Shown here: positions 4,512 through 53,305 of the stretch, one piece after another
Layout: each line of letters begins with the position of its first letter
How positions within the stretch are numbered: position 1 is the stretch's first letter
IMG/VR virus record: IMGVR_UViG_3300008255_000099
Coordinates: 32,001 to 96,000 of that record
Reading direction: 5' to 3' (one strand)
Source: a virus
DNA: 64,000 bases
Notes under the pieces: generated by a model
Seen by the model: only the letters and a program-made list of their open reading frames with translations
Databases searched by the model: none
Told to the model about the DNA's origin: nothing
Made by a program: the position numbers and the translations under genes

Positions 4512-4519
4512 TTTGACTC

Positions 4520-4928: not shown

Positions 4929-4963
4929 GAGATACTATGGATGACGTTTTGTTTTTCCCTTTT

Positions 4964-5275
4964 TTATTTTCCTTCTAAAAAATCATCAAAATCTCTTGTG
5001 TGGGTCCAGCCAGCACCGTGACAAATATCACATTCTGATCGATACCCATGTTTAACATCAGAGCCACAAGAGCATCTCTCAACAAGGCCAGCTTCTTCCA
5101 TTAAATAAAATTCGTATCTTGCATGTGAAAAAATTAATCCCATAATTTTTTTTCTTAGATATTGATATCTTTCATTTTCTCTATCGCCATAAATTTCTTC
5201 TAAATCATCTAAACATTCTTTTAATTTTTTCCAATAATTTAAATGAATTTCCTCGGCGATATTTTTTATGTTCAT
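4964..5275 (-). CDS. Hypothetical protein with C-terminal Cys motif
   Basis: CSCG...CDICHG. Confidence 0.65.
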   Translation of the reverse strand: MNIKNIAEEIHLNYWKKLKECLDDLEEIYGDRENERYQYLRKKIMGLIFSHARYEFYLMEEAGLVERCSCGSDVKHGYRSECDICHGAGWTHTRDFDDFLEGK

Positions 5276-5304
5276 AATTTTTAATTCCTACTAATTAGTT
5301 AGTT

Positions 5305-6066
5305 CTAGAATCTTTTAAAACCCCCTGGTGTTGCTTTAAAATCGTCTGCTAAATCGATATTTTCGACGGGGCCGTTGTCTTCAAATTCTGGTGCTAAATC
5401 CCTATTTAAGTTATACATTTTGGTCTTTGTAGCTCCAATATCGCTTTGGTCTCTTCCTGCGTCGAGATATGTTGCGTTTGTTGCTGTGTCACGAAGTGGA
5501 TCATAAACTTGTGCCATGTTGACTTTCATCTTTCTCCCTCTTCGACCACCAATAAATGCACCTTCTTTAACCATTTGACTAAATTCATAAGGATCTACAT
5601 TCTCTTGATCTGCTAATTCTTTATACTTTCTAGCATAAACAATTGGATTATTAATTTGATCTAGTTGTTCAATAATATTTGCAGCATCTTGTTCTGTTAC
5701 CTGTTTTCTACCACGGCTTTGACCTGCGTTGGGATCATCAAGATCGATATCTATATTTCTCCCCCTCGGGGTGCTATCGTCTTGTGAATACATTGACTTC
5801 ATCTCTTCGGTGTATTGTTTTTCCATCTGGGCAGCATATTGCTCTTCAGAAAGCATAACAAGAAAACCTTTGTAAAGAGAATTCTTCAAGTTTCGAGAAG
5901 ACCTAACAATATCTCCGTTGACACGCATGTCTATTTCCCAACATTCCCTTGGGTTAAGCTGAAGATTAAGGTCCGTGATGTGCAGTGGCCCATCCAAAAC
6001 ATTTTGAACAATTAAGTATTCCGATTTAAGATCATCATGAATTTGTTGAAAATCTTGATTTGACAT
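5305..6066 (-). CDS. Hypothetical protein
   Basis: 253-aa ORF with GGAGG RBS. Confidence 0.7.
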   Translation of the reverse strand: MSNQDFQQIHDDLKSEYLIVQNVLDGPLHITDLNLQLNPRECWEIDMRVNGDIVRSSRNLKNSLYKGFLVMLSEEQYAAQMEKQYTEEMKSMYSQDDSTPRGRNIDIDLDDPNAGQSRGRKQVTEQDAANIIEQLDQINNPIVYARKYKELADQENVDPYEFSQMVKEGAFIGGRRGRKMKVNMAQVYDPLRDTATNATYLDAGRDQSDIGATKTKMYNLNRDLAPEFEDNGPVENIDLADDFKATPGGFKRF

Positions 6067-6167
6067 TTTTATTCCTCCTGATTTTTATTTTTTAACCATT
6101 TCACAAAAAAAGTTCATAACAGTTCAATGTCATTATATGTAATTCAAAGAGGGAATTAAGAATTCCT

Positions 6168-6506
6168 TTATTTTCTTTTAATTTGTGGCAGATTTAATCT
6201 ATTTTCACCTTGAACATCCGATGTCCACAGTTCATTGCTTTGTTGGTTATATTCAGAAGACCCGGAAGATTTCTTTCTTTTTTCTCTCATGTCGTGGACA
6301 TATTTCTTTTTATCGACATCAAGGCCCGCCTGTTTCGCTTTATTTTCAGCATCTGTTAAGACAACGCAGGCGGGGGCAGAGATAAAAACACGGTGGCATT
6401 TAGCGTCACATTCTGGGCATCCTTGTTCTTCTTGTCTTTTTGCTAATGGGACATTTCTCTCAAAATAAAAATCGCATTTTTCACACTTATAATCATAAGT
6501 CGGCAT
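6168..6506 (-). CDS. FmdB-family zinc-ribbon protein
   Basis: MPTYDYKCEKC...CPEC signature. Confidence 0.8.
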   Translation of the reverse strand: MPTYDYKCEKCDFYFERNVPLAKRQEEQGCPECDAKCHRVFISAPACVVLTDAENKAKQAGLDVDKKKYVHDMREKRKKSSGSSEYNQQSNELWTSDVQGENRLNLPQIKRK

Positions 6507-6835
6507 TTAAATTATTTCCTTTAAAAACTCTGTGTTTCCAACCCAATTAAGTTTTTCAACATTTTCTTTTGTTAGATAACTGACATACTCCCTCCGCTAA
6601 AGCAGGAGGGCTTTCTAGCCGTGTTCTTTGTAATTCCCATCTTAACAATTCCAGTATCATATTTTTCAAGAACCTTTTGAAATGGAAATTCTTTTGCATC
6701 AATTGGAATAAAGACACAATAATTTTCATTCCATCCCATTAAACAAAAATAACTACGCCAAACAAATTGTTTTAATTCATATCTAATTTTTTTCTGCTCT
6801 TTCCTCTGTGTATGGGAATCCGAATCCGTATCCAA
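6507..6835 (-). pseudogene. Hypothetical gene frameshifted by a 50-bp IS scar
   Basis: Removing 6580-6629 restores an ORF (...MGITYLTKENVEKLNWVGNTEFLKEII*) whose TAA abuts the ATG of the FmdB gene. Confidence 0.8.
6580..6629 (-). mobile_element. 50-bp IS200/IS605-derived scar, copy 1
   Basis: TTAC|aaagaacacggctagaaagccctcctgctttagcggagggagtatgtcag; subterminal hairpin; no target duplication. Confidence 0.8.
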
Positions 6836-6866
6836 TTAAACTTTGCATTTTAACCTCATTCCAATA

Positions 6867-7163
6867 TCATTTCAAATCAACTTCTTCGAAAAATCTTCGC
6901 ATTTCTTTTTGAGCTTGGTCTAATTTTTCACACCAATTGTTTTTTAGAATATCTGAATTATATATCATTTCAGAAAAAATAATTGAATTCCCTTCCTCTT
7001 CTTTAATCATTTTGGAAATTTTTTTAGATTCCTTCATCATATCGTCTTGAATTCTTAAAATTTCTATTTCATCAAAATTATTCCAAAAATCTTCCCTTAA
7101 AGATTTAGCCGAAGCTGCAATGTTAGCAATTATTTCTGGTTTTGCTATATCAAAATTACTCAT
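6867..7163 (-). CDS. Hypothetical protein
   Basis: ORF with GAGGTG RBS. Confidence 0.6.
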   Translation of the reverse strand: MSNFDIAKPEIIANIAASAKSLREDFWNNFDEIEILRIQDDMMKESKKISKMIKEEEGNSIIFSEMIYNSDILKNNWCEKLDQAQKEMRRFFEEVDLK

Positions 7164-7287
7164 GAATCACCTCTTCTTTTTTGATTATACATAAAATTGT
7201 TAAAATTCTTCTGTTGACTTTTTGAAAACTTCCAGGGTGCCGAAAGGCGGCCCCCTGTGATACAATAGCAGAGACTGGAGGATTTAA

Positions 7288-7968
7288 ATGCTAAACAGAA
7301 ACGACTTGGAGAACTTTGAGAGACCAAAAGAAATTCAGAAATTTCTTGATGAATATTCTGAATGGGAGGCAAAGTTTAAGAAAGAAGCCCCATCAACATC
7401 TTACAACCCATTGTGGTTTAAAAATAACCCAAAGCCGAACATGCCAAGGATTTTACTTATTGATTTAGATACCAACTATTTAAATCTAACAAGAAAGATA
7501 ATAAATAAAAGTTGGTTTTTACCAAAAATTTTTATTTTTTCAGAAGGTAATTGTGATTGGAATTTTTGGTTAATTCCAACATTTGAAGATCGTGAAAAAG
7601 TATTCATAGAAATTGTTGAATTTCTAGTTAAAACTAATAACATTTTTATCACAAACGAACAACCATCTGAAGAAGAATTAAAAAAAGAAATTGAGGAAAG
7701 GTTCCCGTACAAGGACATCCAGGAATCTGATGTTAATGAATTGCCAGAAAATATTTCAAAAGAGTTGCTATCAAAAGCTTCTACGCAAAAAGCAGACTTT
7801 TCTTCTTTCTTGATGTCTAATAAAAAGAATATTGATTTTAACAACCATCTTAAAAAAGCATTAGAAGGGGATGGTGTTTATGCTGCAAGAGTTTTGTCTT
7901 ATTTATCAACTGATTTTCATTCTGAATATAATTATTCATTAGAAGATTTTAAGAATTATTCTATTTGA
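7288..7968 (+). CDS. Hypothetical protein
   Basis: ORF with GGAGG RBS and upstream TACAAT. Confidence 0.7.
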   Translation: MLNRNDLENFERPKEIQKFLDEYSEWEAKFKKEAPSTSYNPLWFKNNPKPNMPRILLIDLDTNYLNLTRKIINKSWFLPKIFIFSEGNCDWNFWLIPTFEDREKVFIEIVEFLVKTNNIFITNEQPSEEELKKEIEERFPYKDIQESDVNELPENISKELLSKASTQKADFSSFLMSNKKNIDFNNHLKKALEGDGVYAARVLSYLSTDFHSEYNYSLEDFKNYSI

Positions 7969-7975
7969 ACGATGT

Positions 7976-8047
7976 GGCAACGAGGGCGATTGGTCGAGCC
8001 ATGGCACTCTAAATGCCCCGTAGAGAGTTCGATTCTCTCCGTTGCCA
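7976..8047 (+). tRNA. tRNA with CUA anticodon (amber suppressor-type)
   Basis: Acceptor GGCAACG/CGTTGCC; D-arm GGC..GCC with GG; anticodon arm GGCA-CTCTAAA-TGCC; T-arm GAGAG-TTCGATT-CTCTC; CCA not encoded. Confidence 0.8.
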
Positions 8048-8066
8048 TTAACAGAGGAGAAAAAAG

Positions 8067-14328: not shown

Positions 14329-14552
14329 AAGAGGAAATATTATTTTCTAGCGAGTCCTAAAATTTGGACCCTAATAGATGGTGTTGGTTAGTTGGCTTGG
14401 AATAACTTTGAGGTCTGAAAATAAATTTAGCCAAGGGATATGATTAAAAACTCCTTGGCTAAATTTTCAATGACTATTTATTCGATAAAGGTATTATATA
14501 AAAAATTTCAGAATTAAATTCTGAATAACTTTTTTTATTAGGGGAAATTTAG

Positions 14553-14870
14553 ATGACAAAATATAATCGAATTGATACTTTGATTCAGTTAGCAAACTGC
14601 TTTGATCAAATAGATGATTTCCAAAATTCTGACAGACTCTCAAAATTTGCATCTGATTCAATTGAAAAAAATAAGAAAAAACCATTTCTTATTAAAACAC
14701 CAAATGGAGATAAATTTATATCAACTGAATTAATTTCTGGTTTTGAAGATGAAATGGAGCATATCCAAACTGTTGATCAGAATGTTTTAAAAGTTTTGCA
14801 AATTGCTATGGATCATCTTAGAGAAGATCCTCATTATTATTCAAAAATGTCGAAAGCAAACATAAGATAA
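14553..14870 (+). CDS. Hypothetical protein
   Basis: LIQLANCFD...SKFAS helix; MDHLREDPHYYSK motif. Confidence 0.65.
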   Translation: MTKYNRIDTLIQLANCFDQIDDFQNSDRLSKFASDSIEKNKKKPFLIKTPNGDKFISTELISGFEDEMEHIQTVDQNVLKVLQIAMDHLREDPHYYSKMSKANIR

Positions 14871-14940
14871 TTTAATTCTTAATTCTTCCGTTCCTTAAAA
14901 AATCCCCCTGGTGTATAATCATAGAAATGGAGGCAGTAGG

Positions 14941-15597
14941 ATGTCATATGACCCAAAATTTTATGAATTGTATGGTGATTACCTAAAAGAGAACAGCGTC
15001 AGAGACGCACATGATTTTGTTTTAAAGATCTCAAGAAAAAATAAGAATTTAGATTCTGTTATAGATATTGGATGTGGTGCTTGGAATGAATATCTAGAAA
15101 GAGATACTGGTAAAAAACGATATGGTTACTACTCTGGAGTAGATCTAAATTGGAATTCTTTTAATAAAATTAAATCTTTTTTGCTTAAAGAATTAACGTT
15201 CGACTGCGACACAAGAAGATTTAAGGGAAAAGAACTAGATTATAGAAATTTAGATCTTTTAATTCAATACATAAAAGAAAGAAATTTTTTCACTGGTTTT
15301 GTTAGTTTGTTTTCAACTGAAATAACTGCACCATACCTTGAGAACTATGAGTTTTACAAAGCTATTTTCGAAAGGACACAGTTAAAATCTGGGTTAGTTA
15401 GTGGGTTTTATTATTCTAACAGAAAAGAACAAGAAAAAGTTTATGAAACAGGAGGTATAATTAGTTTTCAAACTATTGAAAGTCTTGAAGATGTGAAAAA
15501 TGATGTTTTTTCAGAGATAAGAATTGTTCTTCCTGTACCCTCTAAAATGTTTGGTGATGATGTTATTGAAGTCTGGAAGTTTTTTGAGAGAATCTAA
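14941..15597 (+). CDS. SAM-dependent methyltransferase-like protein
   Basis: VIDIGCG motif I; start at ATG 14941 after GGAGG and TATAAT. Confidence 0.5.
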   Translation: MSYDPKFYELYGDYLKENSVRDAHDFVLKISRKNKNLDSVIDIGCGAWNEYLERDTGKKRYGYYSGVDLNWNSFNKIKSFLLKELTFDCDTRRFKGKELDYRNLDLLIQYIKERNFFTGFVSLFSTEITAPYLENYEFYKAIFERTQLKSGLVSGFYYSNRKEQEKVYETGGIISFQTIESLEDVKNDVFSEIRIVLPVPSKMFGDDVIEVWKFFERI

Positions 15598-15911
15598 TGA
15601 ATTATTGGAATTTTAGAAGAATGCGAATCGGAGATAAGATAGCTCTTGTCGAAGTTTATTACAACGATCTTGATGAAATAGAAGGATGGACAGAACCTGT
15701 CATCCAATCTGGGGAAAATGATCAAGAATTGTTAAATGAACTAAACCACATGATAAAAGCATTTGAAAAACCACTGTTGATTGAATCTGAAATTGAAGTA
15801 GCACCGGATGAAAGAAATAGTTTAGTCTTAAAAAAAGAAGATATAAAAAATTTAGTTCCATTAAATCTTCTCATGAATTTTAACAAGGAAGTTGAGTCTA
15901 AAGACTTATGA
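15597..15911 (+). CDS. Hypothetical phage protein
   Basis: Translationally coupled; WNFR...EVYY motif. Confidence 0.65.
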   Translation: MNYWNFRRMRIGDKIALVEVYYNDLDEIEGWTEPVIQSGENDQELLNELNHMIKAFEKPLLIESEIEVAPDERNSLVLKKEDIKNLVPLNLLMNFNKEVESKDL

Positions 15912-16462
15912 GTAAGCAATTTGTAAAACCAGATTGGGATAGTTATTTTATGGCAATGGCCTTTGTTGTTTGTCAAAGATCAATAGATCCAGACACAAAA
16001 CATGGTTGTGTTGTTGTTGATAAAGATCATTCAATTTTGTCAATTGGTTATAATTCCCCTCCAAGGGGCTGTGTGGATGAAGAAATTCCACTAACAAGAC
16101 CAGAAAAATATTCATTTTTTGAGCACGCCGAATCAAATGCGATTATTAACGCTGCAAGAGTAGGCATCCCACTCATTGGTTCAACATTTTATGTTACAGG
16201 GCACCCATGCACAAAATGTTTTTCTCAAATTTTGAATGTGGGAGCAAAAAGAATTATTTATGGACCTGTTAAATCACCTTCTGTTAATGAACAAAGATTT
16301 AAAGAAATAGAAATACTTATGAAAAATCAAGATTTGATTCTTGAAGAATATGATCAAAGCAATCTCAATATTAAATTCCTTTTAATAGATTCTTTTCTTT
16401 ATTTCTGTGACAGAGAAGGTCGTGAAGAAACTAAAATTTCAAATGTTGAAATAGAGGAATGA
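15908..16462 (+). CDS. dCMP deaminase
   Basis: HAESNAI and PCTKC zinc motifs; RSIDPDTKHGCV; GYNSPP. Confidence 0.9.
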   Translation: MSKQFVKPDWDSYFMAMAFVVCQRSIDPDTKHGCVVVDKDHSILSIGYNSPPRGCVDEEIPLTRPEKYSFFEHAESNAIINAARVGIPLIGSTFYVTGHPCTKCFSQILNVGAKRIIYGPVKSPSVNEQRFKEIEILMKNQDLILEEYDQSNLNIKFLLIDSFLYFCDREGREETKISNVEIEE

Positions 16463-16564
16463 AAAATGATGAAACCGATGAAGGTGAACTTTTTAAAGAA
16501 GCAAATGTAAGAGCATATTTTTCACAATATTTAGAATGCATAGATAAAGAGATGGAGAAATTAA

Positions 16565-18871
16565 ATGGAACAAAACACGATTGTTAATATCAGCAAAGAT
16601 GGACTTGAATTGCCCTTTGTCAATGTTGTTGCAGATACACTCCCTGAAGCATGGGAAAATGCTGTTTTAGCGACATGGGAAAATGGGGCTGAAATAAAAA
16701 CACAATATGACAAAGAAGGGGATTCTCCATCAAGAGATGTGTCTTTAAACATGATCATTCGGAATCCTTTTGCTGAACCAAGAATTCATTTAGCTTTCCC
16801 TGGTGGAATTGATGACCTTGAAGTTTATCGACAAGAAGTTGTTGATGGGATTCACGATCATTGGGTTGATCCAGCAAATGGTAAATGGGAATATTGTGTA
16901 GGCCCTGAAACTATGATTCTAATGAAAGATTATTCAGAAAAGCCTATTATAGAAATTACTAATGGAGAAGATATATTATGTTATTCGTTTGAGCATAAAA
17001 GATTAGTACCAGCTACTATTAAAGCAGTTGTTCAAACAAATGCTAAACCATACGCTATTACTTTATCGAATGGTGACAGCATACGGGTTTCATCAGTTCA
17101 TCCCCTTTATGTTGATAGGAAAGGATGGGTTAAAGCACAAGATCTTCAACTTGGAGATAATATTGCATTACATCATAGTAACACAAGTGCCCATATGCGT
17201 TCTAATATATGTGATGATAACACCATATTAGTAACTGAAGATGATATACGAAATATTCCATACCCAATTAACCATAAACGATGTATATCTGTCCTTAAGG
17301 CAAAGGGACTTCTTCCCTTTAGCTTAAATTTAGATGTGGCTGATGTTGTTATACTTCTTGCAGGATATCTTTTTGGTGATGGATGGTTAGGCACACCCTG
17401 TAGTAAATCTACATCGTGTTATCATTCTGGAAGGATTGGATTTGCAGGTGAATATGAAGCATTAAGAGCAATCCGCTCTATTATCAATTTAATTGGATTT
17501 TCAACAGGGAATATTCGTCCTCTTTATCAGAATACAAAAATTAAAGATCGTGTTATTACTGGAACTTCCTTATCATGTGGGTGTAGTCATACTCCATTAT
17601 GGGCGTTGTTTTATGCACTGAAAATACCTGTTGGCAATAAGACTAATCAACATTATACATTACCGGAATGGGTAATGCAAACTGATAACTTGAATATAAA
17701 GAAGCTCTTTTTAGATGGTTTTTTGGATGCTGAGGCATCTGCTCCATATAAACCTAAAAATGATTCTGGTATCGGTGCATCTATATATTTTAGACAAAAT
17801 AAAGATGAAAGTCTTAGTGAATCATTATTTGGTCTTATTGATCAATTTAAAGAATTACTTTTAACAGTTGGTGTTGATTCCACCCTAATTCCAGATTACG
17901 CCCAAGAAGAATCGGTTTCGTTGGGGCTTAGAATTGGTGACAGAGATAATATTGCAAAATATCTTGACTTATTTAAATACCCATTAAGTAAAACTAAACA
18001 ATTTAGAGCTAATTTATATCTTGAATATTTAAATATGTGTATGGACACAATGGATAGTTATGATTGTAAAAATCTTTCACAACTAAAATTACCTAAATAC
18101 AAAGATTGGTTATTAGGTAGAGATATTAGCAAATTAGTATTTTCATCTATTTCATCAATACAAATTTCTAATATTATTGAGCCACTATATGATATAGCTG
18201 TAGAACATCCTGACCATAATTTTATAGCCAATGGTATATTATCTCATAATACTTATCATGAAAGACTTTTTGGGTATTCTATACCAATAAATACTGATGA
18301 GTGTTTAGCATTGAATTCGAATATTAATCTTTTACCATGTAATTATCCTTTAAGTGATAATAATTTTGGATATTCTGTTAACCAAATTCAATATATCATA
18401 GACACACTTTCAGAAGTGCCACACAGTCGAAGGGCACAAGCAATAACTTGGAAACCCTGGGAGGACTGTGGAATTTATGACCCAGCTTGCCTTCAATCTT
18501 TGTTTTGTCGAATTTTTAATGACAAGTTGGTCATGAATGTTCGCATGAGAAGCAACGATGCTTTCAAAGCTGCATTTATGAACATCTTCGCTTTCACCGA
18601 TTTACAGAGGCTGATCGCTGAAAAGATTTCAGAGAAAATTGGAAGAAAAATTGAAGTAGGTCAATATCAACATCAGGTTGACTCATTTCACATTTATGGG
18701 AGTTATTTTTCTGAATTCGAAGGATTTTTAAATAGAACAGAAACGGAACCTTTTAAATCTAGAATTTGGGATAGCTCTTCAGAATTTGTTCAAGATCTTT
18801 TTGCAGAAGCAAAAGAAAAAGTAAAAAAATCAATTGAAGAAGAGAAAAAATCTGGAAGAAAAGGGCTTTAA
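16565..18871 (+). CDS. thyA: Thymidylate synthase (short, archaeal-type ThyA-like) with intein
   Basis: Spliced WEY|TYHERL; SRRAQAITW; PACLQ; MRSND; HIY. Confidence 0.8.
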   Translation: MEQNTIVNISKDGLELPFVNVVADTLPEAWENAVLATWENGAEIKTQYDKEGDSPSRDVSLNMIIRNPFAEPRIHLAFPGGIDDLEVYRQEVVDGIHDHWVDPANGKWEYCVGPETMILMKDYSEKPIIEITNGEDILCYSFEHKRLVPATIKAVVQTNAKPYAITLSNGDSIRVSSVHPLYVDRKGWVKAQDLQLGDNIALHHSNTSAHMRSNICDDNTILVTEDDIRNIPYPINHKRCISVLKAKGLLPFSLNLDVADVVILLAGYLFGDGWLGTPCSKSTSCYHSGRIGFAGEYEALRAIRSIINLIGFSTGNIRPLYQNTKIKDRVITGTSLSCGCSHTPLWALFYALKIPVGNKTNQHYTLPEWVMQTDNLNIKKLFLDGFLDAEASAPYKPKNDSGIGASIYFRQNKDESLSESLFGLIDQFKELLLTVGVDSTLIPDYAQEESVSLGLRIGDRDNIAKYLDLFKYPLSKTKQFRANLYLEYLNMCMDTMDSYDCKNLSQLKLPKYKDWLLGRDISKLVFSSISSIQISNIIEPLYDIAVEHPDHNFIANGILSHNTYHERLFGYSIPINTDECLALNSNINLLPCNYPLSDNNFGYSVNQIQYIIDTLSEVPHSRRAQAITWKPWEDCGIYDPACLQSLFCRIFNDKLVMNVRMRSNDAFKAAFMNIFAFTDLQRLIAEKISEKIGRKIEVGQYQHQVDSFHIYGSYFSEFEGFLNRTETEPFKSRIWDSSSEFVQDLFAEAKEKVKKSIEEEKKSGRKGL
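16895..18250 (+). other. Intein with LAGLIDADG endonuclease (452 aa)
   Basis: Starts CVGPET, ends ILSHN|T; LAGYLFGDG and FLDGFLDAEA motifs. Confidence 0.9.
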
Positions 18872-18960
18872 AATGATAAAAATTAACATCTTAAATGAGG
18901 CCCTAAATTTAGGTGCTAATAAGGTGTCTTGAAGTATATCTTCATTTCACGATATAAAAA

Positions 18961-33547: not shown

Positions 33548-33964
33548 CTAAATTTCCGGCCACAACCCACGACGATGTAAATCAAGAAGAAATTCTGATG
33601 CTTTTCGTTTTGCCGAGACAATGCCCAAAGTTCTTTCTGTGGCTTTATCTAATTCGGCCATAACACGATCTGGGAAAATATGTTCATCCCTTTCTAAAAC
33701 ATCAATTCTACGCTCAATTGCCTGTTGCCTAATTGGTTCAGAATCGTTTGCTTGAATCAACTGATTTAAAATTTCTTCAAAAGAAGAATGATTTGCCATT
33801 TCGACTAAATGATTTGCTCTATCATAAGCTACACCGCTTGAAAAGAATCCCTTCTCAATCAATGGCTCAAAAAAAACCTTGAAAACTTCATTACGAATTT
33901 CAAGTAATGTCATTTTTTCGTGTTTGTTATTAAAATTTTCATCAATTGCAAGTTTAAACCACAT
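33548..33964 (-). CDS. Hypothetical protein with MWFKLA tag
   Basis: N-terminus MWFKLAI. Confidence 0.7.
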   Translation of the reverse strand: MWFKLAIDENFNNKHEKMTLLEIRNEVFKVFFEPLIEKGFFSSGVAYDRANHLVEMANHSSFEEILNQLIQANDSEPIRQQAIERRIDVLERDEHIFPDRVMAELDKATERTLGIVSAKRKASEFLLDLHRRGLWPEI

Positions 33965-34394
33965 TTTTTCTATTTTTATATCTAATTCCTAGATCTAATA
34001 AGGCTTCTATTTGATCTAAAATAAAATCTGTGGATTTAAATCGGATCAATAAATGTATTAATTTATCTAAAATCTGTATTTTTTCTAATATAACATTAGG
34101 ATCTGGGATTTGACCAATCTCAAGTTTTGTCCTAATATCATAAAATAAATCAAATATTTCAACTAATTTATTGATAAATATCTCTGATGCATTAGATATA
34201 ACTTCGTTTTTAAACAACTTAAAATTAAAAATATCTTCTATTTCTTTTAATAAAATTTTTGTTTGCTGGTTATCATTAGAATTTAAAGAGTTTACAACTT
34301 TTAATGATAACTCTTTTATTGTTTCAATAATATTAATCGCATCATCCACTAATTTAATAGCTTTTTCTGTTAAAATTTTTTCTTGATTATGCAT
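33954..34394 (-). CDS. Hypothetical helical protein
   Basis: Start at ATG 34394 after GGAGGGAG. Confidence 0.6.
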   Translation of the reverse strand: MHNQEKILTEKAIKLVDDAINIIETIKELSLKVVNSLNSNDNQQTKILLKEIEDIFNFKLFKNEVISNASEIFINKLVEIFDLFYDIRTKLEIGQIPDPNVILEKIQILDKLIHLLIRFKSTDFILDQIEALLDLGIRYKNRKNVV

Positions 34395-34601
34395 ATCTCC
34401 CTCCAAGTTTCATTTCTCTGTTTCATTTCTCTTTTGATTAATAAAAAACCTTCTGATCAACAAAAAATCTTTAAAATTTTTAAAATCATATGACTAACAT
34501 CACCACAGAGAGGTATAGTCACAAGAGCAAGCCACAACCAGCTAAGAAGGAAGAAAAAACACCAATGATAAGGGAAAGATATATAATTTGTTCAATAATA
34601 T

Positions 34602-34781
34602 AGGTCTGGCGGTGTGCCGGGGCAGCTAATCAACCACTTGACAAAGACGCCTTGGGGTGGTAGCCTAATGCTGTTGCCCCGAGGGCAACTGGCCCTCGGG
34701 GCCAAAACCACTATATCTAGTGTTGGACCAAACGACCACAACAGGTTGTGGTTTGAGTGGGAAGACGCTCTAGATGTTGGG
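34602..34781 (+). ncRNA. Candidate structured RNA (tracrRNA/scaffold-like) ahead of the array
   Basis: GC-rich; stems gccccgaggg/ccctcggggc, accacaa/ttgtggt, atatctag/ctagatgt; 34619-34634 partly complementary to the repeat; TATAAT at 34582-34587. Confidence 0.5.
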
Positions 34782-35043
34782 GTTGGCTCTCTGCCCGCAG
34801 ATCTAGATCGTGTTTGACGGACAGGATGTCTTATCAGGAGGCGTTGGCTCTCTGCCCGCAGAGCTAGATCCCGCCTAGAGGCCAGCAAGGCCACAGGCAA
34901 AAGGTTGGCTCTCTGCCCGCAGAGCTAGATCGTTCGACACGAGGTTCGGCAACATCTGCGAGCAGTTGGCTCCCTGCCCCCGCAGGGCTAGATCACCGTG
35001 GTCTCGCAGCAATTCGTCGATGTCGAGGTTGGCTACTTGCCCC
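34782..35043 (+). CRISPR. Orphan CRISPR-like mini-array: 4 full repeats, 1 truncated repeat, 4 spacers
   Basis: Repeat GTTGGCTCTCTGCCCGCAGAGCTAGATC (28 bp) at 34782, 34843, 34904, 30-bp variant at 34965, truncated at 35028; four unique 33-bp spacers. Confidence 0.85.
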
Positions 35044-35205
35044 AAACGGAGAATTAATAATAGAAAATAAATTAATCCAATTCGACGAAGAATTAGGTGT
35101 GTTTATTAATTAAATTTAATTTTTTAGAAATATACACAAAAAATGTGTAATTCCCCCACAATTTGTGAAAATTTGTTATATAATTGGTTTATGAGGTGAT
35201 GAATT

Positions 35206-35802
35206 ATGATTCAAAAATGTAAGAGATATAATTTGATGCTTGATGAAGAAGATCAAAATCTTCTAGCTGATGAATGCTCAAAAATGCAAACATCAGTTTC
35301 ATGTATGATTAGGAATTTGATTAAAGATTTTTTGAATGATTTTAAAAAGGAGGAAAAAATGGCTAATTTTAATATTGTTAGAAAAGACTTTGATTCATTA
35401 TTCGACAGAATATTTGATAATAGAATGTTTTCTTTGATAGGGGACGATGCCTTGAGTTCTTTTAATTCATTCCCTGTCGAGGTGAAAGACTGTGGGGAAT
35501 TTTTTGAAGTTTTAGCTGAGGTTCCAGGGGCAAAGAAAGAAGAGATTGATCTTTCAGTTGATAAAAATAATTTGTCAATAATTGTCAATAAATCATCTGT
35601 TGAAACAAAAGAAAATGAAAGAATCCTTTTCTCTGAACTTAGAACAAATTCAAGAATCAGCAGAACATTGCACCTCCCCCAACCCATCGACGAAAACAAA
35701 ATCCAAGCATCGTTGATTTCTGGGTTTTTAAAAATTGTTTTGCCAAAACTTGAAGAAATCCATCTGAAAAGAATAGAAATCAATGAGGTTGAGACAGAGT
35801 GA
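35206..35802 (+). CDS. Hsp20/alpha-crystallin small heat-shock protein with N-terminal RHH-like extension
   Basis: EVPGAKKEEIDLSV, SRTLHLPQPID, GFLKIVLPK; internal RBS and ATG at 35359. Confidence 0.85.
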   Translation: MIQKCKRYNLMLDEEDQNLLADECSKMQTSVSCMIRNLIKDFLNDFKKEEKMANFNIVRKDFDSLFDRIFDNRMFSLIGDDALSSFNSFPVEVKDCGEFFEVLAEVPGAKKEEIDLSVDKNNLSIIVNKSSVETKENERILFSELRTNSRISRTLHLPQPIDENKIQASLISGFLKIVLPKLEEIHLKRIEINEVETE

Positions 35803-35852: not shown

Positions 35853-36806
35853 TCAATCTGCCATTGAAATAAGACCAATTTTTCTAGAATCACGCAAAAC
35901 CATACAAATTTCCTCACAAACAACCATAGCATATTCTTCAACCTCATTCGTTAAAGAAGTATTGCATGTCCATAATTCATTTCTGTCAATTTTGATATCA
36001 ATAAAACCTAATTGAGAAGATTTCGGCAAAACCAAAATCTTACGCTTTGGCATCAATGTGCTCTCAACAACATCGCCAAAATCTTTGAGCCTCTCACTAA
36101 ATTTAAATTCAGTATTAATTAAAAACTTGTCAACATTTCCACCATAACCCTCAATAGTTTCAGAAATTGTTTTGATAATCATATCAAGATCTTTTTCACA
36201 CGCATCCTCCCAACGATGATACTCAGGTTTTTTACCGTTTTTTGCAGCTAAATCTGTAAGAACAGAAGAATAAAGCAACACAATCACTTTCAAATCTTCT
36301 TGCTCATTCAAGCGATTGTTAGCCCTAAACCTTGCTAACTGTGAATAACAAAAACCATAATCTTTCTTCCAACGAGGATTCGTGGCTAAATGAAAATAAA
36401 CAGGTTCAAAAGATTTGTCCGAAGTTGGCCAAAATTTTGGCACGTTAGATGAAGAACAATATTGATAACTTGAAATAAAATCTTCCTCAATTAAACTCTT
36501 AAGATCTGTTTTTGTTGGAGATTTAAATTGAATTCTTTCAGTTTGATTTAAAAGAAGCCCATCCTCATAAACATCAAAAATCTTTCTTGCTAAATTTGGT
36601 GTTTGATCTTGAACTTTCTTTGCTTCTTTATCAGTTAATAAAAAACATCTAATTGAATTGCGAATCAATTGGCTAACTGGCACATCAAATTTTTCAGAAG
36701 ACTTTTTTAAATCATTAAGATAATTTTGCTCAATTCTAAAATTATATTGAACAAGCTCATCATCCTCAATCGCCTCAAAACCTTCAACATTTTCAGCTTC
36801 CGACAT
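35853..36806 (-). CDS. RHH domain fused to a degenerate major capsid protein paralog
   Basis: N-terminal VQYNFRIEQNYLNDLKKSSEKFDVPVSQLIRNSI; colinear motif matches to the 38151 MCP. Confidence 0.6.
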   Translation of the reverse strand: MSEAENVEGFEAIEDDELVQYNFRIEQNYLNDLKKSSEKFDVPVSQLIRNSIRCFLLTDKEAKKVQDQTPNLARKIFDVYEDGLLLNQTERIQFKSPTKTDLKSLIEEDFISSYQYCSSSNVPKFWPTSDKSFEPVYFHLATNPRWKKDYGFCYSQLARFRANNRLNEQEDLKVIVLLYSSVLTDLAAKNGKKPEYHRWEDACEKDLDMIIKTISETIEGYGGNVDKFLINTEFKFSERLKDFGDVVESTLMPKRKILVLPKSSQLGFIDIKIDRNELWTCNTSLTNEVEEYAMVVCEEICMVLRDSRKIGLISMAD

Positions 36807-37002: not shown

Positions 37003-37923
37003 TTATTCTTTATCTAATTCTTTATTTTCTGTGCCATCATCTATAAACTGTTGAATGTTATCAATAATTTCATTTGCCGAATTATTATTCTCAATATTTT
37101 TTGCTAAATCTTTTATTTGTGATAATAGTAAAAATGTTTTTTTATTAATCTTATTTTTAGTTTTAACATGTTTATTTTCTTTTATATCAAATTTATATTC
37201 CATACCCTCTGGTGCAATTAAATTAGGTGATAAAATTTTATAATCTTCTGATGGTATAAACAAAAACCAATGATCTAATGATTGTCTATATTTTTTTTCA
37301 AATGTAACACCAAATTTATCAGAAAAAAATTCACACATTAATGTATGTTCTTCTTCTGTAAAGCAATAAGTAGATATTCTACATCCTTGCCCATGCCTAC
37401 CACCATCATCTGATATTGCCATAGAAAGACCTAAATAATCAATCTTATTTAACCAATATTCAGTAACAACTTTTTTAGTAGAAGATTCATATATTTCATC
37501 ATAAATATTTTTCCAAATTTTATGATATGGAGTATATAATTCCGTTCGTAAACTATCGCCAGATTGCGTGTCATATAGTTTGGGATTCCATCTTTTTAAT
37601 AAATTTGCTTTAAATTCTAATAATGGTCTCTGAACTCTTGTGTGACATTCTCTATAATTATATTCAGTCCCCTTTTGAAGATTTATAGTTCCATCACCTA
37701 ATAAAGAACCATAAACAACTTGTTCTTCTTCATAATTTAATTCGGTTGGTAAATTAAATCTATAAACACTCTTCCTATCTCTTGATGGAAAATCTAAAGT
37801 TTGTAATTTACTTTTAAGAGATATCTTACTTCTACCAAGTTCGGTAGCTATATCTTCTAATGGCATACAATCATCCCACATTTCTCTAAATTTTTTCAAT
37901 TCTTCCTTTGTCCATTCAGCCAT
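37003..37923 (-). CDS. Free-standing LAGLIDADG homing endonuclease with N-terminal HTH
   Basis: YGSLLGDG and LSMAISDDG motifs; N-terminal WTKEE..IATELGRS. Confidence 0.8.
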   Translation of the reverse strand: MAEWTKEELKKFREMWDDCMPLEDIATELGRSKISLKSKLQTLDFPSRDRKSVYRFNLPTELNYEEEQVVYGSLLGDGTINLQKGTEYNYRECHTRVQRPLLEFKANLLKRWNPKLYDTQSGDSLRTELYTPYHKIWKNIYDEIYESSTKKVVTEYWLNKIDYLGLSMAISDDGGRHGQGCRISTYCFTEEEHTLMCEFFSDKFGVTFEKKYRQSLDHWFLFIPSEDYKILSPNLIAPEGMEYKFDIKENKHVKTKNKINKKTFLLLSQIKDLAKNIENNNSANEIIDNIQQFIDDGTENKELDKE

Positions 37924-38150: not shown

Positions 38151-39005
38151 CTATCCAATTACTATTTTAGCTGTTGCATAATCATTTATCACGGCAATTC
38201 CAAGCTCCTCGTAAATTACCCATCCTAGTCTTAATGCTTTTGGATCATCTGCTGGAAGAACGGTAATGTCCTGTCTTACCGGCATTGCTCCAACGAATTC
38301 ACCTGGGGCTAAAACATAGATTGAGTTTTTTGGAACCATTGTTGAAACGTGAATGTCTGCGGTCCATAAGTGTCCGTAAAGACCTGACATTAAAACATCT
38401 CTCTGAGTTGCCTCATCGAAAAAGTCTTTCCCCCATGCTCTCACGTCCTTATATCTAAATGGATGGCAAACAATTTTTGCACCGACAAGCTCGTGCTCTT
38501 CGATAAGAGCTAATGCGAGATTTATGTTGTCGGGTGAAAGGTTCCCCGAAACGGTTACTGTATGATCTGTTGATACAGCGACAGAGATTGCTTTGAAAAC
38601 TTCGAGGTCTTCTTGGCGTTGGATGCTGTCTTTTGCTCTCACTTGGGCACGATCTACGATGTAGTATCGTCTTGCTCTGATTTCATTCAACTTGATAGTT
38701 GGATTGCAGGCAATTTCAAAAGTGGGAACTAACAGTTCCTCTGCTTCTACCATCATATCAGGCACAGAACCACGTTTTGGAATAACGTAAGAAGTGACTG
38801 CGATATCTCTTTCATATCTTGGCAAAGCGCCTTGCGGCAGTTCGTCAACCATCAAAAGCTTGCGCCCGATGGCCTGATACTCAAGAGAAATCTTGATTGG
38901 TTCAACCATTGCTTGCGCCAGGGCAACACGGCCTTCGCCGGTTTCCAAAGCTTGTGCAATGATCTCTTCCTTTTGCTCATTGATATTTCTCTTGACAAGA
39001 CTCAT
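38151..39005 (-). CDS. Major capsid protein (HK97 fold)
   Basis: 284 aa; GGAGG RBS; last gene of protease-scaffold-decoration series; VDELPQGALPRYERD, QEDLEVF, YEELGIAV. Confidence 0.85.
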   Translation of the reverse strand: MSLVKRNINEQKEEIIAQALETGEGRVALAQAMVEPIKISLEYQAIGRKLLMVDELPQGALPRYERDIAVTSYVIPKRGSVPDMMVEAEELLVPTFEIACNPTIKLNEIRARRYYIVDRAQVRAKDSIQRQEDLEVFKAISVAVSTDHTVTVSGNLSPDNINLALALIEEHELVGAKIVCHPFRYKDVRAWGKDFFDEATQRDVLMSGLYGHLWTADIHVSTMVPKNSIYVLAPGEFVGAMPVRQDITVLPADDPKALRLGWVIYEELGIAVINDYATAKIVIG

Positions 39006-41924: not shown

Positions 41925-43022
41925 TTAAAAAATATTATCTTCTATGTCTTCAGCTTGTTCTGAACCACAATTTCTACATCTAAACCATTGTTTTGAGCCT
42001 AATTTTCCAAGTTCTTGTAATTCTCCACCACATTCATGACATTGTTTTAGATCTTCTTCAAATTCATCTTCTTGATCATCTTTATCTAAAAGATGTTTTA
42101 ATAAACCTTCAAGATCTGAAGATTCATCATCTTCATCATCAGAAAAAATTTGAGATAATTTAATTGTTTTAAATTTGCTTAATTTATTTGAAGATAATTT
42201 GTTGCCACCCAACATATCTTTGTTATTATTAAATCTATCTTTGTGGTTTTTAATTGGCAAATCATTATTAAATTTAGGTTCTAGAATTGGTGAATCATTA
42301 TTAAAATAATCAGCTTCTAAATCAGGGCCAAGGTTTGCATCATCTTCTAAATCAGGGCCAAGATTTGCATCAGCTTCTAAATCAGGGCCAAGATTTGCAT
42401 CAGCTTCTAAATCAGGGCCAAGATTTGCATCAGATTCTAAATCAGGGCCAAGATTTGCATCAGATTCTAAATCACCTTCTAAACCATCGCCCAAACCCTC
42501 TGCTGCTAATTCTTCTCTTAAAATATCAAAAAATTCTTTATTTTGATCCATTGGTGAAAACAAATCACCCAGATCACCCGAATCTTCTAAATCTTCTGAA
42601 ATCTCTGGATCATCAGCATATTCTAATCCCCCCTCATCTAAATAATCTTCTGAAGCACCAAGATCACCTAGATCATCAATATCTTTTGGTCTATCAGGGA
42701 TTTCTGGGTCGTCGGCGTATTCTAATCTCCCTTCATCTAAATAATCTTCTGGAAGCCCATCATTCCCAAATTGAGAAATTTTTGTAAATTTTGTTTTAGA
42801 ATAACTTTTAATTATTTTTTCTGCATTTTTTTCTATTTCTTTTTCTTTAATTTCAAGAATAGCTTGAAGTTTTTTCTTTCTTTTGTCAAGATTAGCTAAA
42901 ACATATGGAGTTTTAATTTTCCATTTTAGATTTTCTATATCTTCCATTTCTTCAAGAATATCTTGTTTTGTTTTTGGTTCTTTTGAAGATAATCCCATAA
43001 TTAAATGTTGTATATCTGACAT
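41925..43022 (-). CDS. Acidic repeat protein with C-terminal zinc ribbon
   Basis: About five 30-bp repeats (DLExDANLGP) at 42315-42473; CHECGG...CRNCG. Confidence 0.7.
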   Translation of the reverse strand: MSDIQHLIMGLSSKEPKTKQDILEEMEDIENLKWKIKTPYVLANLDKRKKKLQAILEIKEKEIEKNAEKIIKSYSKTKFTKISQFGNDGLPEDYLDEGRLEYADDPEIPDRPKDIDDLGDLGASEDYLDEGGLEYADDPEISEDLEDSGDLGDLFSPMDQNKEFFDILREELAAEGLGDGLEGDLESDANLGPDLESDANLGPDLEADANLGPDLEADANLGPDLEDDANLGPDLEADYFNNDSPILEPKFNNDLPIKNHKDRFNNNKDMLGGNKLSSNKLSKFKTIKLSQIFSDDEDDESSDLEGLLKHLLDKDDQEDEFEEDLKQCHECGGELQELGKLGSKQWFRCRNCGSEQAEDIEDNIF

Positions 43023-49831: not shown

Positions 49832-52800
49832 TTATGAATTATATCTTGAATTTACAACTTCTTTTATAACCTCAATAACTTTATCAAGTTTTTGTTCAAC
49901 TTCTTTTTCTGTAAATCTTAAAACAATCCATCCTAACTCTGACAACACAGAATCTCGTTCTTTATCTTTAGCTATTTTTTCTGGATCGCTATGCCAAGTT
50001 TCACCATCTGCTTCAACTGCTACTTTAATTGTCGGGAAAGAACCATCAACACGATATTTCGGATTGCCACCAACTAAATATTGTGCAAAGAAGGGGACTT
50101 CAAGTTGTAGCTCGGCTATCCCTTTATAAAGTTGTTCTTCAATTCTTGTAAAGAATGTTTTTTTAGTATTATCTTGTTTTTTAGCAGATTGTTTGAAAAG
50201 TAATAATCTTTCTTTAAATTCATCGTCTAAATATTCTAAACACTCTTGTGAGGCAGTTGTCAAGAATCTATTCATTGATAAACCATTCGACAAAGGAAGA
50301 TCTTCTTGATCTAAATCAAAATAATTAAGATTAGATTCTTCTGGCATCTTTCCTCTAAAAGAGTTGCCAAAAATTTCATTCTCATGATTATTTTTATTAT
50401 ATTCAGCTAATTTTTCATTTAATTTATTAACAGCATATTTGTAATTTTGTTTCATAAAGGATGCTGCTAAAGGAGTCCCCATACCCATTTCTCCTCCACC
50501 TGGACCACCAGTCGGAGGCATTGGAACACCAGAAGCTTGACCACCACCTAAACCGCCACCAAGATCGGCTCCTTCTTCTGGTGGAATTCCCATTTGTGAC
50601 ATTCCGCCTGCACCACCGCCACCTAAATCTTCTCCTTCTGAAACACCCAACCCAAGATCGGGGCTTAACATCATTGAAGTAGCTTCTTCCTGTCTTATTT
50701 GTTCTACTTCCACGTCATAATCTAATCCTAGTTCTGTTAACAATGTCCGAAGGGAAATTTCGCCACGAGCACGGCACACCATCATATTAGAAATTCTTGC
50801 ATTATCATCTTTCAATGCTAAATCATGGAATTTTACTTTAGGATAAATCAAAGTTGTTGCTCCACGAGGATCTGTTGTTGTTAAGTTGTTAAATTCAGCT
50901 ATTGGTTTAAATATTTTTTGTTCAATAAATTCTGCTATTTCATTTCTGAAAGTGTTCAGTTTTGCAGCAAGAGCATCAAGGCCAACTTGAGCAGATGCGT
51001 AATTAGGTCCTTCACCGTGAAGTAGAGATTTGTTTAATTGAAGACCAGTTTGAAGATCTTCATTAATTAATTCATATTCATTGGTCAACTGAAGAACTTT
51101 TCCGGCTGCACCAATCCATTCGTAATCAAAACTATGGTGAGTTACAATTGTTTGTAGAGGGTCATTTTGGACAGAACTTAATTGTTCTAGAACATTCTGG
51201 ATGTCCTCGTCATTTGCGGGTCGGTTATCAGAACCTATTTTTACCACTTTAACAGGAAGGATATGTCTTTCTGCTGTTAACCATTGCGCTTGTCTTAATT
51301 TATCACGATAAGCCAAAGTTGGGAAAAGTCTTCTAACCAGAGAAATTCCATATGTTCTATAAGCAGAAGCCCCGAACTTTAGATGATGTGTTGAAAGATT
51401 ACTTAATTTAATAGGCTGTTTAGATTTTATCATCTCTCTAACTAATGGCGGAATATTTTGATAGATTGATTCTGGTTTTCCTTTGATGCAAACTTCAATT
51501 AATTGATCTGGTGGAACCCATTGAATCTCTGGGTCTCCCCCAAGAAAAGAAGGAGATACTTCCACTGTGTTAGGATCTAAAATATTTAATCCACCCCAAG
51601 TAGCTCCATAATGATTGCAAGCTGCACCTGTCTTTTTATCTATTCCCGTGCCGGAACATTGTTCACATTGAAGTTCAAGAAAAATAAAAACATCACCAAA
51701 AAGAAAATATTCATGTGCTATTTTTGTTAGCCATTTATTTAACTCAAGTTTTGAACATTCTTTTTCAAATACTTCTTTTATTTCACCATCTGAGCACTCT
51801 AAATCAAAACCATTCATTGAAAAATAAGCATAAAAGTCAATACCTGTAGCAACTATCGGCTCATTCTCAAACCAATACGAGCTATTGGAAACTGTTGAAA
51901 AATTAGCTAAATATTGATGACAATTTGTTTCATCATCGACATGAAAATCATAAACCAACCCTTCATACCATTCCTCTGAAATATCTTTAATTCGTGAAAA
52001 AACTTTATTTTCAGTTTGAAAGAATTGTGTGTTGAACTTAAGAATCTCTATTTGTTCTGTTTTGTAGTTTTCAATCGGAGACCATTCTTTTATTAAGTTA
52101 GAATTTAATTTATCCACCCACAGTGAGTAATATTTTCCTTCTTCTTTTTGATCTTTTGTGTCATTCCCTTGCCTTGATGGGATTCCCAAACCGAAAAGGA
52201 TAAATCTAATTTGTGATAGTAGATTATAGTTGATACTGGTTAATTTTATTTCTCCTTTTCCACGAAATTCTTTATTAACACTATGTCCATCACCGAGGTA
52301 ATATCCTATAATTAATTGTTTCAGCAATTCTTTGTTTTGGTTTAGAATAATTTCTGAAAGGACCTTCTCGTATGAATATCTACCACACAGATCTAAAATT
52401 TTTGATGCTAGTTCTTTAGAATAAATTTCAACACAAAGAACTGATGGCTTATTTATAACTTTTGCATCATAGTTAAATTCTTTTTTAATTATTTCACAAC
52501 AATCTTTGACAAGTGTTTCTTTTTCACTTTCTCCAAAAGAAAATGTTAGATAACTTGGTTGGTTATTTCTAAAAATAACTGAACCTTCTGCAAGATAATA
52601 TCCTAAAAATCTCATAAATTCAGGTGAGAAATCTTCTCGTGTCCCTTTTAGGACATTTGTTGGTGAATACAAAAAATCACCTTCTTCTAGTTCTCCTGCG
52701 TGGCAGTCTTTTATTTCTATTCTATCTTCTAATGTCGTATGATCGTCGCATTTTTTTGATGAGCAGGCATATTTTTCACGGCAGAATCTAAATGTAGATT

Positions 52801-53305
52801 TAAAATATTTGCAAGAGAATTCATCTTCTGGGGCGTAATAAAATTTATGTTCTGGGGTAGCTTTGATGTAGTCCACGGAGCCAATTGTTTGAATTTTTTT
52901 AAGATAACCAGAGAATTGTTTTTTATTAACATATTTAACTGTTCCTTCTGTTCCAGAACCTGTTAAAACTTTATCTCCTTGTTTAATTTCGGAGATTGGT
53001 TTTTGTGTAAAATCAAACATTGTGATTAATGTATCAGGATGTAAGCACCATGCATAAACTTCTTTTCGGTTGGTTGGGATTTGCCAAGCGGACGGTGTGT
53101 GATAGGGAGAATAAAAGCTTGGGGCAGTTGTAATAACACTATTTCCAGTAGCTTGTGCTGTAGAAACAAGACCATTGCTTTTTACATATCTGGTAACTCC
53201 ATCCATACTAAAACTTGGAGGATTAACAGGGAACGTAGCTGTATCTGGATAATTCCTTAAATTTTGATCAAACTGTTTGTAACCTTTTCTCTTAAACTTC
53301 GCCAT
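49832..53305 (-). CDS. Portal protein with intein and C-terminal DUF559/Vsr-like domain
   Basis: Portal-like motifs (EPIVATGIDFY, HEYFLFGDVF, YGISLVRR, FHDLAL); C-terminal RVDG..KVAVEADGETWH..DKERD..L..LGWIVLRF. Confidence 0.8.
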   Translation of the reverse strand: MAKFKRKGYKQFDQNLRNYPDTATFPVNPPSFSMDGVTRYVKSNGLVSTAQATGNSVITTAPSFYSPYHTPSAWQIPTNRKEVYAWCLHPDTLITMFDFTQKPISEIKQGDKVLTGSGTEGTVKYVNKKQFSGYLKKIQTIGSVDYIKATPEHKFYYAPEDEFSCKYFKSTFRFCREKYACSSKKCDDHTTLEDRIEIKDCHAGELEEGDFLYSPTNVLKGTREDFSPEFMRFLGYYLAEGSVIFRNNQPSYLTFSFGESEKETLVKDCCEIIKKEFNYDAKVINKPSVLCVEIYSKELASKILDLCGRYSYEKVLSEIILNQNKELLKQLIIGYYLGDGHSVNKEFRGKGEIKLTSINYNLLSQIRFILFGLGIPSRQGNDTKDQKEEGKYYSLWVDKLNSNLIKEWSPIENYKTEQIEILKFNTQFFQTENKVFSRIKDISEEWYEGLVYDFHVDDETNCHQYLANFSTVSNSSYWFENEPIVATGIDFYAYFSMNGFDLECSDGEIKEVFEKECSKLELNKWLTKIAHEYFLFGDVFIFLELQCEQCSGTGIDKKTGAACNHYGATWGGLNILDPNTVEVSPSFLGGDPEIQWVPPDQLIEVCIKGKPESIYQNIPPLVREMIKSKQPIKLSNLSTHHLKFGASAYRTYGISLVRRLFPTLAYRDKLRQAQWLTAERHILPVKVVKIGSDNRPANDEDIQNVLEQLSSVQNDPLQTIVTHHSFDYEWIGAAGKVLQLTNEYELINEDLQTGLQLNKSLLHGEGPNYASAQVGLDALAAKLNTFRNEIAEFIEQKIFKPIAEFNNLTTTDPRGATTLIYPKVKFHDLALKDDNARISNMMVCRARGEISLRTLLTELGLDYDVEVEQIRQEEATSMMLSPDLGLGVSEGEDLGGGGAGGMSQMGIPPEEGADLGGGLGGGQASGVPMPPTGGPGGGEMGMGTPLAASFMKQNYKYAVNKLNEKLAEYNKNNHENEIFGNSFRGKMPEESNLNYFDLDQEDLPLSNGLSMNRFLTTASQECLEYLDDEFKERLLLFKQSAKKQDNTKKTFFTRIEEQLYKGIAELQLEVPFFAQYLVGGNPKYRVDGSFPTIKVAVEADGETWHSDPEKIAKDKERDSVLSELGWIVLRFTEKEVEQKLDKVIEVIKEVVNSRYNS
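51884..53047 (-). other. Intein with LAGLIDADG endonuclease (388 aa)
   Basis: Starts CLHPDT, ends STVSN|S; FLGYYLAEG and IIGYYLGDG. Confidence 0.9.

Follow-up and report, generated by a model that had tools for sequence, protein, structure and literature searches.

The window analysed here, a stretch of 64,000 nucleotides from a virus (IMG/VR record IMGVR_UViG_3300008255_000099, positions 32,001 to 96,000), has an overall GC content of approximately 32%, and one intergenic region departs abruptly from this value. Flanked by a 150-aa ORF running leftward (33954-34406) and, on the other side, a gene for an Hsp20-domain protein running rightward (35206-35802), the segment 34602-35045 reaches 58.1% GC, as compared to 28.7% and 23.1% in its intergenic flanks, and its edges are sharp. 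This island consists of a non-coding, structured block of 180 nt (34602-34781, plus strand, 56% GC), followed by a short repeat-spacer array (34782-35050, plus strand) for which the block occupies the position of a leader. The AT-rich phage DNA left of the island (34457-34587, plus strand) contains sigma-70-like promoter candidates at 34457-34486 and 34490-34519, as well as a TATAAT element at 34582-34587. The promoter candidates are consensus matches only, with five found versus 2.2 expected; they adjoin the island and point into it, and as far as such motifs can be read, transcription of the array is possible. To the right, the Hsp20-domain gene is followed by a gene (35853-36806) that has no relative outside this phage among 5.8 billion proteins, and a free-standing LAGLIDADG homing endonuclease gene (37003-37923) lies immediately downstream of the capsid gene.

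The array comprises four good repeats of 28-30 nt, a degenerate fifth repeat and four spacers of exactly 33 nt, all on the plus strand. The first repeat, R1 (34782-34809, 28 nt), carries one change, G21>T, that opens the closing pair of the repeat hairpin. R2 (34843-34870, 28 nt) represents the consensus, and R3 (34904-34931) has the same sequence. R4 (34965-34994) is 30 nt long, with a compensatory pair of changes (U9>C with A20>G) and a loop extended by two bases. Only the first ~15 nt of the truncated R5 (35028-35050) are recognizable, and the right edge of the GC-rich island falls here. The spacers occupy positions 34810-34842 (spacer 1, 52% GC), 34871-34903 (spacer 2, 64% GC), 34932-34964 (S3, 58% GC), and 34995-35027 (S4, 58% GC). 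All four are different, and no duplicates exist inside the array or elsewhere in the genome. The distances between consecutive repeat starts are 61, 61, 61, and 63 bp.

The repeat can form a hairpin with a 5-bp stem (CTCTG/CAGAG) and a CCCG loop, followed by the 7-nt tail CTAGATC. ViennaRNA favours an alternative 8-bp fold for the consensus repeat. The double change in R4 preserves the 5-bp stem and disrupts the alternative fold, and we therefore took the 5-bp register as the relevant one. An earlier note, made from the letters of this stretch alone, had described a CRISPR-like mini-array with a 61-bp period (28+33), this very hairpin and tail, and degeneration towards the right end. Its description stands on each point and can be made more precise: the last interval is 63 bp, the hairpin is backed by the compensatory change, and the degeneration on the right is accompanied by the change at the closing pair of R1 on the left.

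Allowing up to three mismatches, the repeat occurred three times in the window versus 0.00 expected from 100 shuffles, and no further copies were detected in the rest of the 183-kb (183,411-bp) contig. The locus displays the features by which CRISPR arrays are generally recognized, namely at least three near-identical direct repeats of 23-47 nt, regular spacing, and unique spacers of similar length. Since GC-rich hairpins resemble REP elements, we considered whether the stretch could instead be a tandem repeat, a REP/BIME-like cluster, or a transposon-end remnant. Such structures do not account for unique, equal-length, coding-like spacers between near-identical direct repeats; Tandem Repeats Finder called no tandem repeat at the array, as expected given that the spacers are unique, and the TnpB core was absent in all six frames. 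A pattern search for the 7-nt tail alone at a 61-bp period returned 34 loci in species genomes, which proved to be ordinary coding or tandem repeats with little resemblance to the array. A non-CRISPR origin is thus close to refuted, and we are highly confident that the stretch is a real CRISPR array of foreign origin.

The contig is a piece of the jumbo phage CG_PHAGE_32_16, which resembles phage G and comes from groundwater at Crystal Geyser (Utah). The IMG/VR record is a linear fragment with a CheckV completeness of 58%. The same phage is represented by NCBI record GCA_902729855.1 (272,967 bp). Position 136,716 of this record corresponds to the left end of the contig, and proteins encoded at the contig's far right are absent from the record. 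Given that the two sequences overlap only partly, the genome should measure ~320 kb, consistent with the CheckV estimate. The contig encodes its own replisome, ribonucleotide reductase, ligase, and RecA, together with many inteins. The major capsid protein (38151-39005) shares 53% identity with that of Bacillus phage G and 36% with that of a 485-kb uncultured phage, and the published capsid tree places CG_PHAGE_32_16 beside phage G (PMC7162821). Searches with the flanking genes recovered no closer relatives in viral contigs, nor in a set of 5.8 billion proteins beyond the phage itself. DNA of this phage was present in at least 11 groundwater or aquifer runs, and no RNA run was listed among the public runs that contain it.

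The array is not new to the literature. In Table S1 of Al-Shayeb et al. 2020 (PMC7162821), the entry for CG_PHAGE_32_16 reads "Y" for CRISPR-Cas, "N" for Cas1, Cas2, and host spacer match, and "None" for both effector complex and interference. That this phage has an array without cas genes has therefore been on record since 2020, and the locus is a documented case of a known phenomenon. Neither the repeat nor the spacers appeared in those portions of the supplements of PMC7162821 that were accessible. The host table of the same study assigns no dominant phylum to CG_PHAGE_32_16: 77% of its genes are unknown, and Microgenomates, Proteobacteria, and Firmicutes account for ~3% each. The phage also encodes a SpoVR-like and a DUF444/YeaH-like protein, a PrkA-pathway pair (L005:1498-6988), and the SpoVR part scores higher against Bacillota (up to 184 bits) than against Pseudomonadota (up to 112 bits).

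We searched for cas genes and other effectors with six-frame family searches across the 183-kb contig, which returned no Cas1, Cas6e, Cas6f, Cas7e, or TnpB RuvC core. PF08798 and PF09344 were absent from the six frames of the contig, PF01385 (TnpB) gave no match, and none of the 38 contig ORFs scanned against Pfam contained a Cas domain. These family and Pfam searches replaced a PADLOC run on 131 ORFs, which was dominated by methyltransferase models and uninformative on Cas. The portion of the NCBI record at 136.7-208.3 kb, which adds 71.6 kb beyond the contig, yielded no Cas family and contained neither the repeat nor any further periodic array. Our own Cas/TnpB scan thereby covered ~255 kb of the ~320-kb genome, and the last 64.7 kb of the record had been covered by the Cas HMM screen of PMC7162821. 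The earlier remark that no recognizable cas gene occurs in 64 kb is thus extended to 183 kb plus 71.6 kb of the same phage, and the genome-wide scan for Cas/TnpB-like effectors proposed with it gave neither a Cas nor a TnpB signal over these ~255 kb. Lacking cas genes on the phage, the array cannot act on its own.

One weak match to PF07282 (the TNB zinc ribbon of TnpB/Cas12f), at 41925-43022, was dismissed: the protein is not TnpB, and the ribbon sits at its extreme C-terminus. The product of 41925-43022 is an acidic head-module protein that carries DLE-x-DANLGP-like tandem repeats and ends in a CxxC...CxxC zinc ribbon.

The block upstream of the array belongs to no Rfam family and lacks codon periodicity. 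It contains two neighbouring perfect GC hairpins at ~34676-34712, and its folding energy of -77.9 kcal/mol corresponds to a z-score of -3.57. The best duplex between the repeat and the block reached -29.6 kcal/mol versus -24.4 ± 2.6 kcal/mol for shuffles (z -1.95), a value equalled by 4.6% of the shuffles; pairing partners of the repeat were also sought on the opposite strand and in the downstream region, with no result. The strong structure of the block, its slightly better than shuffled pairing with the repeat, and the many large phage ORFs without a family would be in line with a self-contained new RNA-guided system, in which the 180-nt block serves as a tracrRNA- or scaffold-like RNA and an unrecognized phage protein as the effector. 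Against this, class-1 systems, to which the geometry of a 28-nt hairpin repeat with 33-nt spacers belongs, work without a tracrRNA; apart from the zinc ribbon of the head-module protein, neither a TNB nor a RuvC signal of TnpB or Cas12 was detected; the neighbouring genes are small unknowns and Hsp20; and the GC-foreign RNA locus has no GC-rich protein gene adjoining it. We consider such a system very unlikely. The same low probability applies to the broader idea of a phage guide-RNA locus working without host Cas, where the upstream RNA would pair with or scaffold the repeats and act through a new effector or an RNA-interference-like route.

In tracrRNA-dependent class 2 systems (types II and V), a strong anti-repeat lies beside a Cas9 or Cas12 gene, whereas the duplex at the phage locus is marginal and no TNB/RuvC signal was detected. 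Omega-RNA loci of TnpB/IS200-IS605 elements combine a TnpB gene with a scaffold at the right end of the transposon, whereas no TnpB was found in the phage contig. The suggestion in the earlier note that the repeats might serve an undescribed RNA-guided system was accordingly not borne out, as no candidate effector emerged and the upstream anti-repeat is only marginal. Since class-1 geometry needs no tracrRNA, we read the upstream block as the leader or adjacent DNA of the donor array rather than as a scaffold RNA.

By its layout, the array matches type I-E, whose units have a 28-29-nt repeat, a 32-33-nt spacer, a length of 61 nt, and a hairpin that ends at nucleotide 21 and is followed by a 7-8-nt handle. 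The CRISPR4 array of S. thermophilus has the same 28-nt repeat, 33-nt spacer, and 61-nt unit, the 3' base of its hairpin is likewise nucleotide 21, and its handle is likewise 7 nt long. In that system, Cas6e cuts after repeat nucleotide 21, yielding a 61-nt crRNA in which the 33-nt spacer is flanked by handles of 7 nt (5') and 21 nt (3') (PMC3890593). The 61-bp period, which the earlier note had called typical of type I-E, hence reproduces the S. thermophilus unit exactly and is not exotic. The sequence tells otherwise: in-register identity is only 12/28 to the S. thermophilus I-E repeat (19/31 in a gapped alignment, equalled by ~3% of shuffles) and 14/28 to the E. coli repeat. I-E repeats have a conserved G/C stem (CCCGC/GCGGG) in place of the CTCTG/CAGAG stem of the phage repeat, and the I-E genes cse1, cse2, cas7, cas5, cas6e, and cas3 are all missing from the phage; Cascade, Cas6e, and Cas3 may be encoded by the host. 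The repeat geometry thus fits type I-E, and the repeat sequence does not place the array in this type.

Type I-F, as represented by P. aeruginosa PA14 (PMC3890593), likewise has a 28-nt repeat with a GTT start, a CTGCC...GCAG-like core, and a CTA-GA-type tail. It differs in having 32-nt spacers, an 8-nt handle, and a 60-nt unit, as compared to 33-nt spacers and a 7-nt tail in the phage array (PMC3890593); in-register identity to the I-F repeat is 10/28, and Cas6f was not found on the phage. Gapped alignments of the phage repeat to the S. thermophilus, E. coli, and I-F reference repeats were equalled by 2-5% of shuffles.

We looked for the repeat in large sequence collections, where such scans require exact or near-exact matches. 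The exact repeat was not found in 2.9 M viral contigs, and a pattern tolerating the variation seen within the array was not found in 185,579 species genomes or 241 M metagenome records. Relaxing one part of the repeat at a time did not change this outcome, either for the conserved ends with any hairpin (241 M metagenome records) or for the conserved hairpin with any ends (2.9 M viral contigs). At up to three mismatches, the repeat was absent from 1,203 genomes sampled from three phyla and from five single genomes. Rfam reported nothing at gathering thresholds across the whole contig, and nothing meaningful on the island at E-values up to 10, CRISPR-DR families included; the repeat string did not appear in the full-text literature. 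The repeat had been called unfamiliar from the outset, and it remains so with respect to Rfam, the scanned collections, and the literature; the search of metagenomes that the note had proposed produced no copy of the repeat.

Targets of the spacers in viral contigs were sought with N allowed at every sixth base. None of the four spacers had a protospacer in these contigs or among INPHARED phages, plasmids gave chance-level matches only, and no self-targets exist in the phage contig. A 27/29 match of S3 in a housekeeping kinase-like gene of Burkholderia replicons (E ~0.1) was dismissed as chance.

The spacers nevertheless carry information on their origin. With 52-64% GC (58% on average), they stand against 32% for this phage and ~30% for its phage G kin. 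S3 has one reading frame with G or C at all ten third positions, and the position-specific GC of S4 is 0.82, 0.80, and 0.10. In these patterns, S3 and S4 display the 3-base periodicity that marks coding sequences of GC-rich replicons. CRISPR spacers derive from invaders of the cell that builds the array. We infer from the GC-rich, coding-like spacers that the array was built in a cell exposed to GC-rich invaders and was then moved as one piece into the AT-rich phage. The island is absent from the whole records of phage G and of the 485-kb relative (LR745208), and its un-ameliorated composition suggests a recent capture. If so, a near-identical donor array should exist somewhere, and the empty repeat scans mainly show that the donor is unsampled. 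Whether the array is functional or inert cannot be told from the empty repeat and target scans.

A second GC-rich, foreign-looking block is found in the contig between an RNA ligase gene and a 408-aa ORF (L007 ~7170-7910; contig 175170-175910). Two hairpins, a perfect GC one of 16 bp and another of 23 bp, are found in it together with a small GC-rich ORF (77-121 aa), for which a homology search for leads to a donor returned only the ORF itself. GC-rich DNA has thus been taken up more than once.

Contigs from other sequencing runs span the left junction of the island (X2, X3, and X4) and the right junction (X2 and X5) with zero differences, so the junctions are not assembly artefacts; X3 and X4 end inside the array. 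Over 34300-35300, three additional assemblies, two of them from ENA and the third from Logan, match at 100% identity. The array is fixed in the population, being identical in all assemblies that span it, and no spacer turnover was seen across assemblies.

The captured fragment may have no function in the phage and be an inert passenger, recent neutral foreign DNA that has yet to decay or be lost. The composition of the island is still fully foreign, damage is visible in R1 and R5, the collections scanned contained neither a cognate Cas nor a host array or target, no spacer turnover was seen in any assembly, and the second GC-rich block indicates that such uptake recurs. Following from a recent capture, the intactness of the array need not reflect selection, and the R4 and R5 variants may come from the donor. 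Less easily reconciled with an inert fragment are the fixation of the array in the same form in every assembly, the identity of R2 and R3, the exact 33-nt length of all spacers, the position of the island directly behind promoter-like elements, and the literature, according to which viral arrays of this type usually have a role (PMC11656645, PMC7162821). We regard the lack of function as a serious, if tentative, possibility, almost as likely as an activity that depends on host Cas proteins.

The latter is our preferred explanation, held tentatively. A complete small CRISPR array and its leader-like block were probably acquired together, in a single stretch of ~450 bp, from a cell or mobile element of higher GC content and inserted between genes of the AT-rich jumbo phage CG_PHAGE_32_16. 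A phage promoter just left of the island would transcribe both block and array. A Cas6e-type nuclease of the infected cell may then cut each repeat after nucleotide 21, releasing 61-nt crRNAs in which the 33-nt spacer is preceded by a 7-nt handle (CUAGAUC) and followed by a 21-nt hairpin end, and these would load onto the Cascade-type complex of the infected cell. Two outcomes can be envisaged. The crRNAs could direct the complex against GC-rich competing elements, or, as harmless guides, they could occupy it and dilute the host's own guides, a decoy effect like that of RNA anti-CRISPRs. Taken separately, targeting by the array through host Cas is rather unlikely, and a host-Cas-dependent decoy effect is more improbable still.

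We counted several observations in favour of a host-Cas-dependent array: an anatomy beyond chance, a hairpin kept by the compensatory change in R4, the geometry identical to S. thermophilus I-E, the foreign origin of the island, the lack of cas genes on the phage, the fixation in the population, the promoter-like elements next to the island, and published precedents (PMC7162821, PMC11656645). Counted against it were the lack of a host-type array with a similar repeat and of any protospacer, and the change in R1 that opens the closing pair of the hairpin. In addition, the GC-rich spacers cannot target AT-rich kin of the phage, unlike those of classical viral mini-arrays, and if the host were itself the donor, the phage copy would add no new guides. 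The earlier proposal that the array supplies guides for a host or remote effector may hold, but it gains no positive support from host-type arrays, protospacers, or spacer turnover.

The precedents resemble the array in part. Huge phages carry compact CRISPR arrays, the median number of repeats being six, and phages without cas genes may use host Cas proteins where phage repeats resemble those of the host (PMC7162821). With five repeats, the array studied here is likewise compact, whereas for its repeat no host or host-type counterpart is known on which the host-Cas idea could rest. Virus-borne mini-CRISPR arrays (Medvedeva et al. 2019, PMC6858448; PMC11656645) are also short and cas-less, with a block in leader position, and are presumed to act through host Cas proteins (PMC11656645), as we propose for the phage array. 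They have one or two spacers, mostly matching related viruses, and host-identical repeats; the phage array has four spacers without matches, GC-rich unlike the AT-rich kin of the phage, and no known host repeat. Both viral mini-arrays and repeat-RNA decoys are established (PMC11656645). RNA anti-CRISPRs (Racrs) are likewise phage-encoded repeat RNAs without cas genes, which could tie up host Cas6 and Cas7, but they are single repeat units without proper spacers, whereas the phage locus is a regular multi-spacer array with full-length spacers (PMC11656645). A Racr-type decoy effect of the array is possible in principle.

Cas-less arrays of huge phages thus form a known class whose mechanism is untested, and the array of CG_PHAGE_32_16 is a clean, already catalogued example that by itself opens no new kind of system. 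The new details are that the whole locus is a compositionally foreign 450-bp insert, that its spacers appear to stem from GC-rich coding DNA, and that an exactly I-E-like unit geometry is combined with a repeat sequence lacking a known relative. Being a specific probe, the 28-nt repeat could reveal the host or donor in Crystal Geyser data, and 61-nt crRNAs beginning with CUAGAUC would make the locus a simple test case for the "borrowed Cas" idea.

Several other features of the phage genome were recorded. ORF 2474-3247 of the window contains 12-mers at a 69-bp period (window ~2575-2790; contig 34575-34790), which looks like a coding tandem repeat and not a CRISPR array. ARAGORN predicted a tRNA with the anticodon CTA at 7975-8048 (labelled tRNA-Pyl, TAG suppressor type), at which the Rfam tRNA model was silent at its gathering threshold; when TAG was read as sense, ORFs lengthened only slightly, which gives no evident sign of recoding. 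The gene at L007:1344-3338 (contig 169344-171338) encodes a 664-aa protein that has a TROVE (Ro60-like) domain. Ro-type proteins work with small structured Y RNAs, none of which was found in the contig with Rfam.

Inteins are unusually numerous in this genome. Intein and LAGLIDADG domains were found in six named proteins: thymidylate synthase, the portal protein, class II ribonucleotide reductase (two inteins), the DUF444/YeaH-like and SpoVR-like proteins, and DNA polymerase III alpha. The intein-bearing genes are located at 16565-18871 and 49832-53305 of the window and at L004:12053-17587 and L005:1498-4158, 4175-6988, and 14465-18946. The portal protein also carries a C-terminal DUF559 nuclease domain.

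Outside the contig, at ~155-208 kb of the NCBI record (L066-L074), lies a cluster of giant ORFs encoding RCC1-repeat proteins of 1261 and 1920 aa and proteins of 3259, 1021, and 3055 aa without families; tail-fibre-like giants are also encoded within the 136.7-208.3-kb portion of the record. An APS kinase gene and genes for glycosyl-, methyl-, and sulfo-transferases are located beside the cluster, suggesting a module modifying glycans of the virion or the cell surface.
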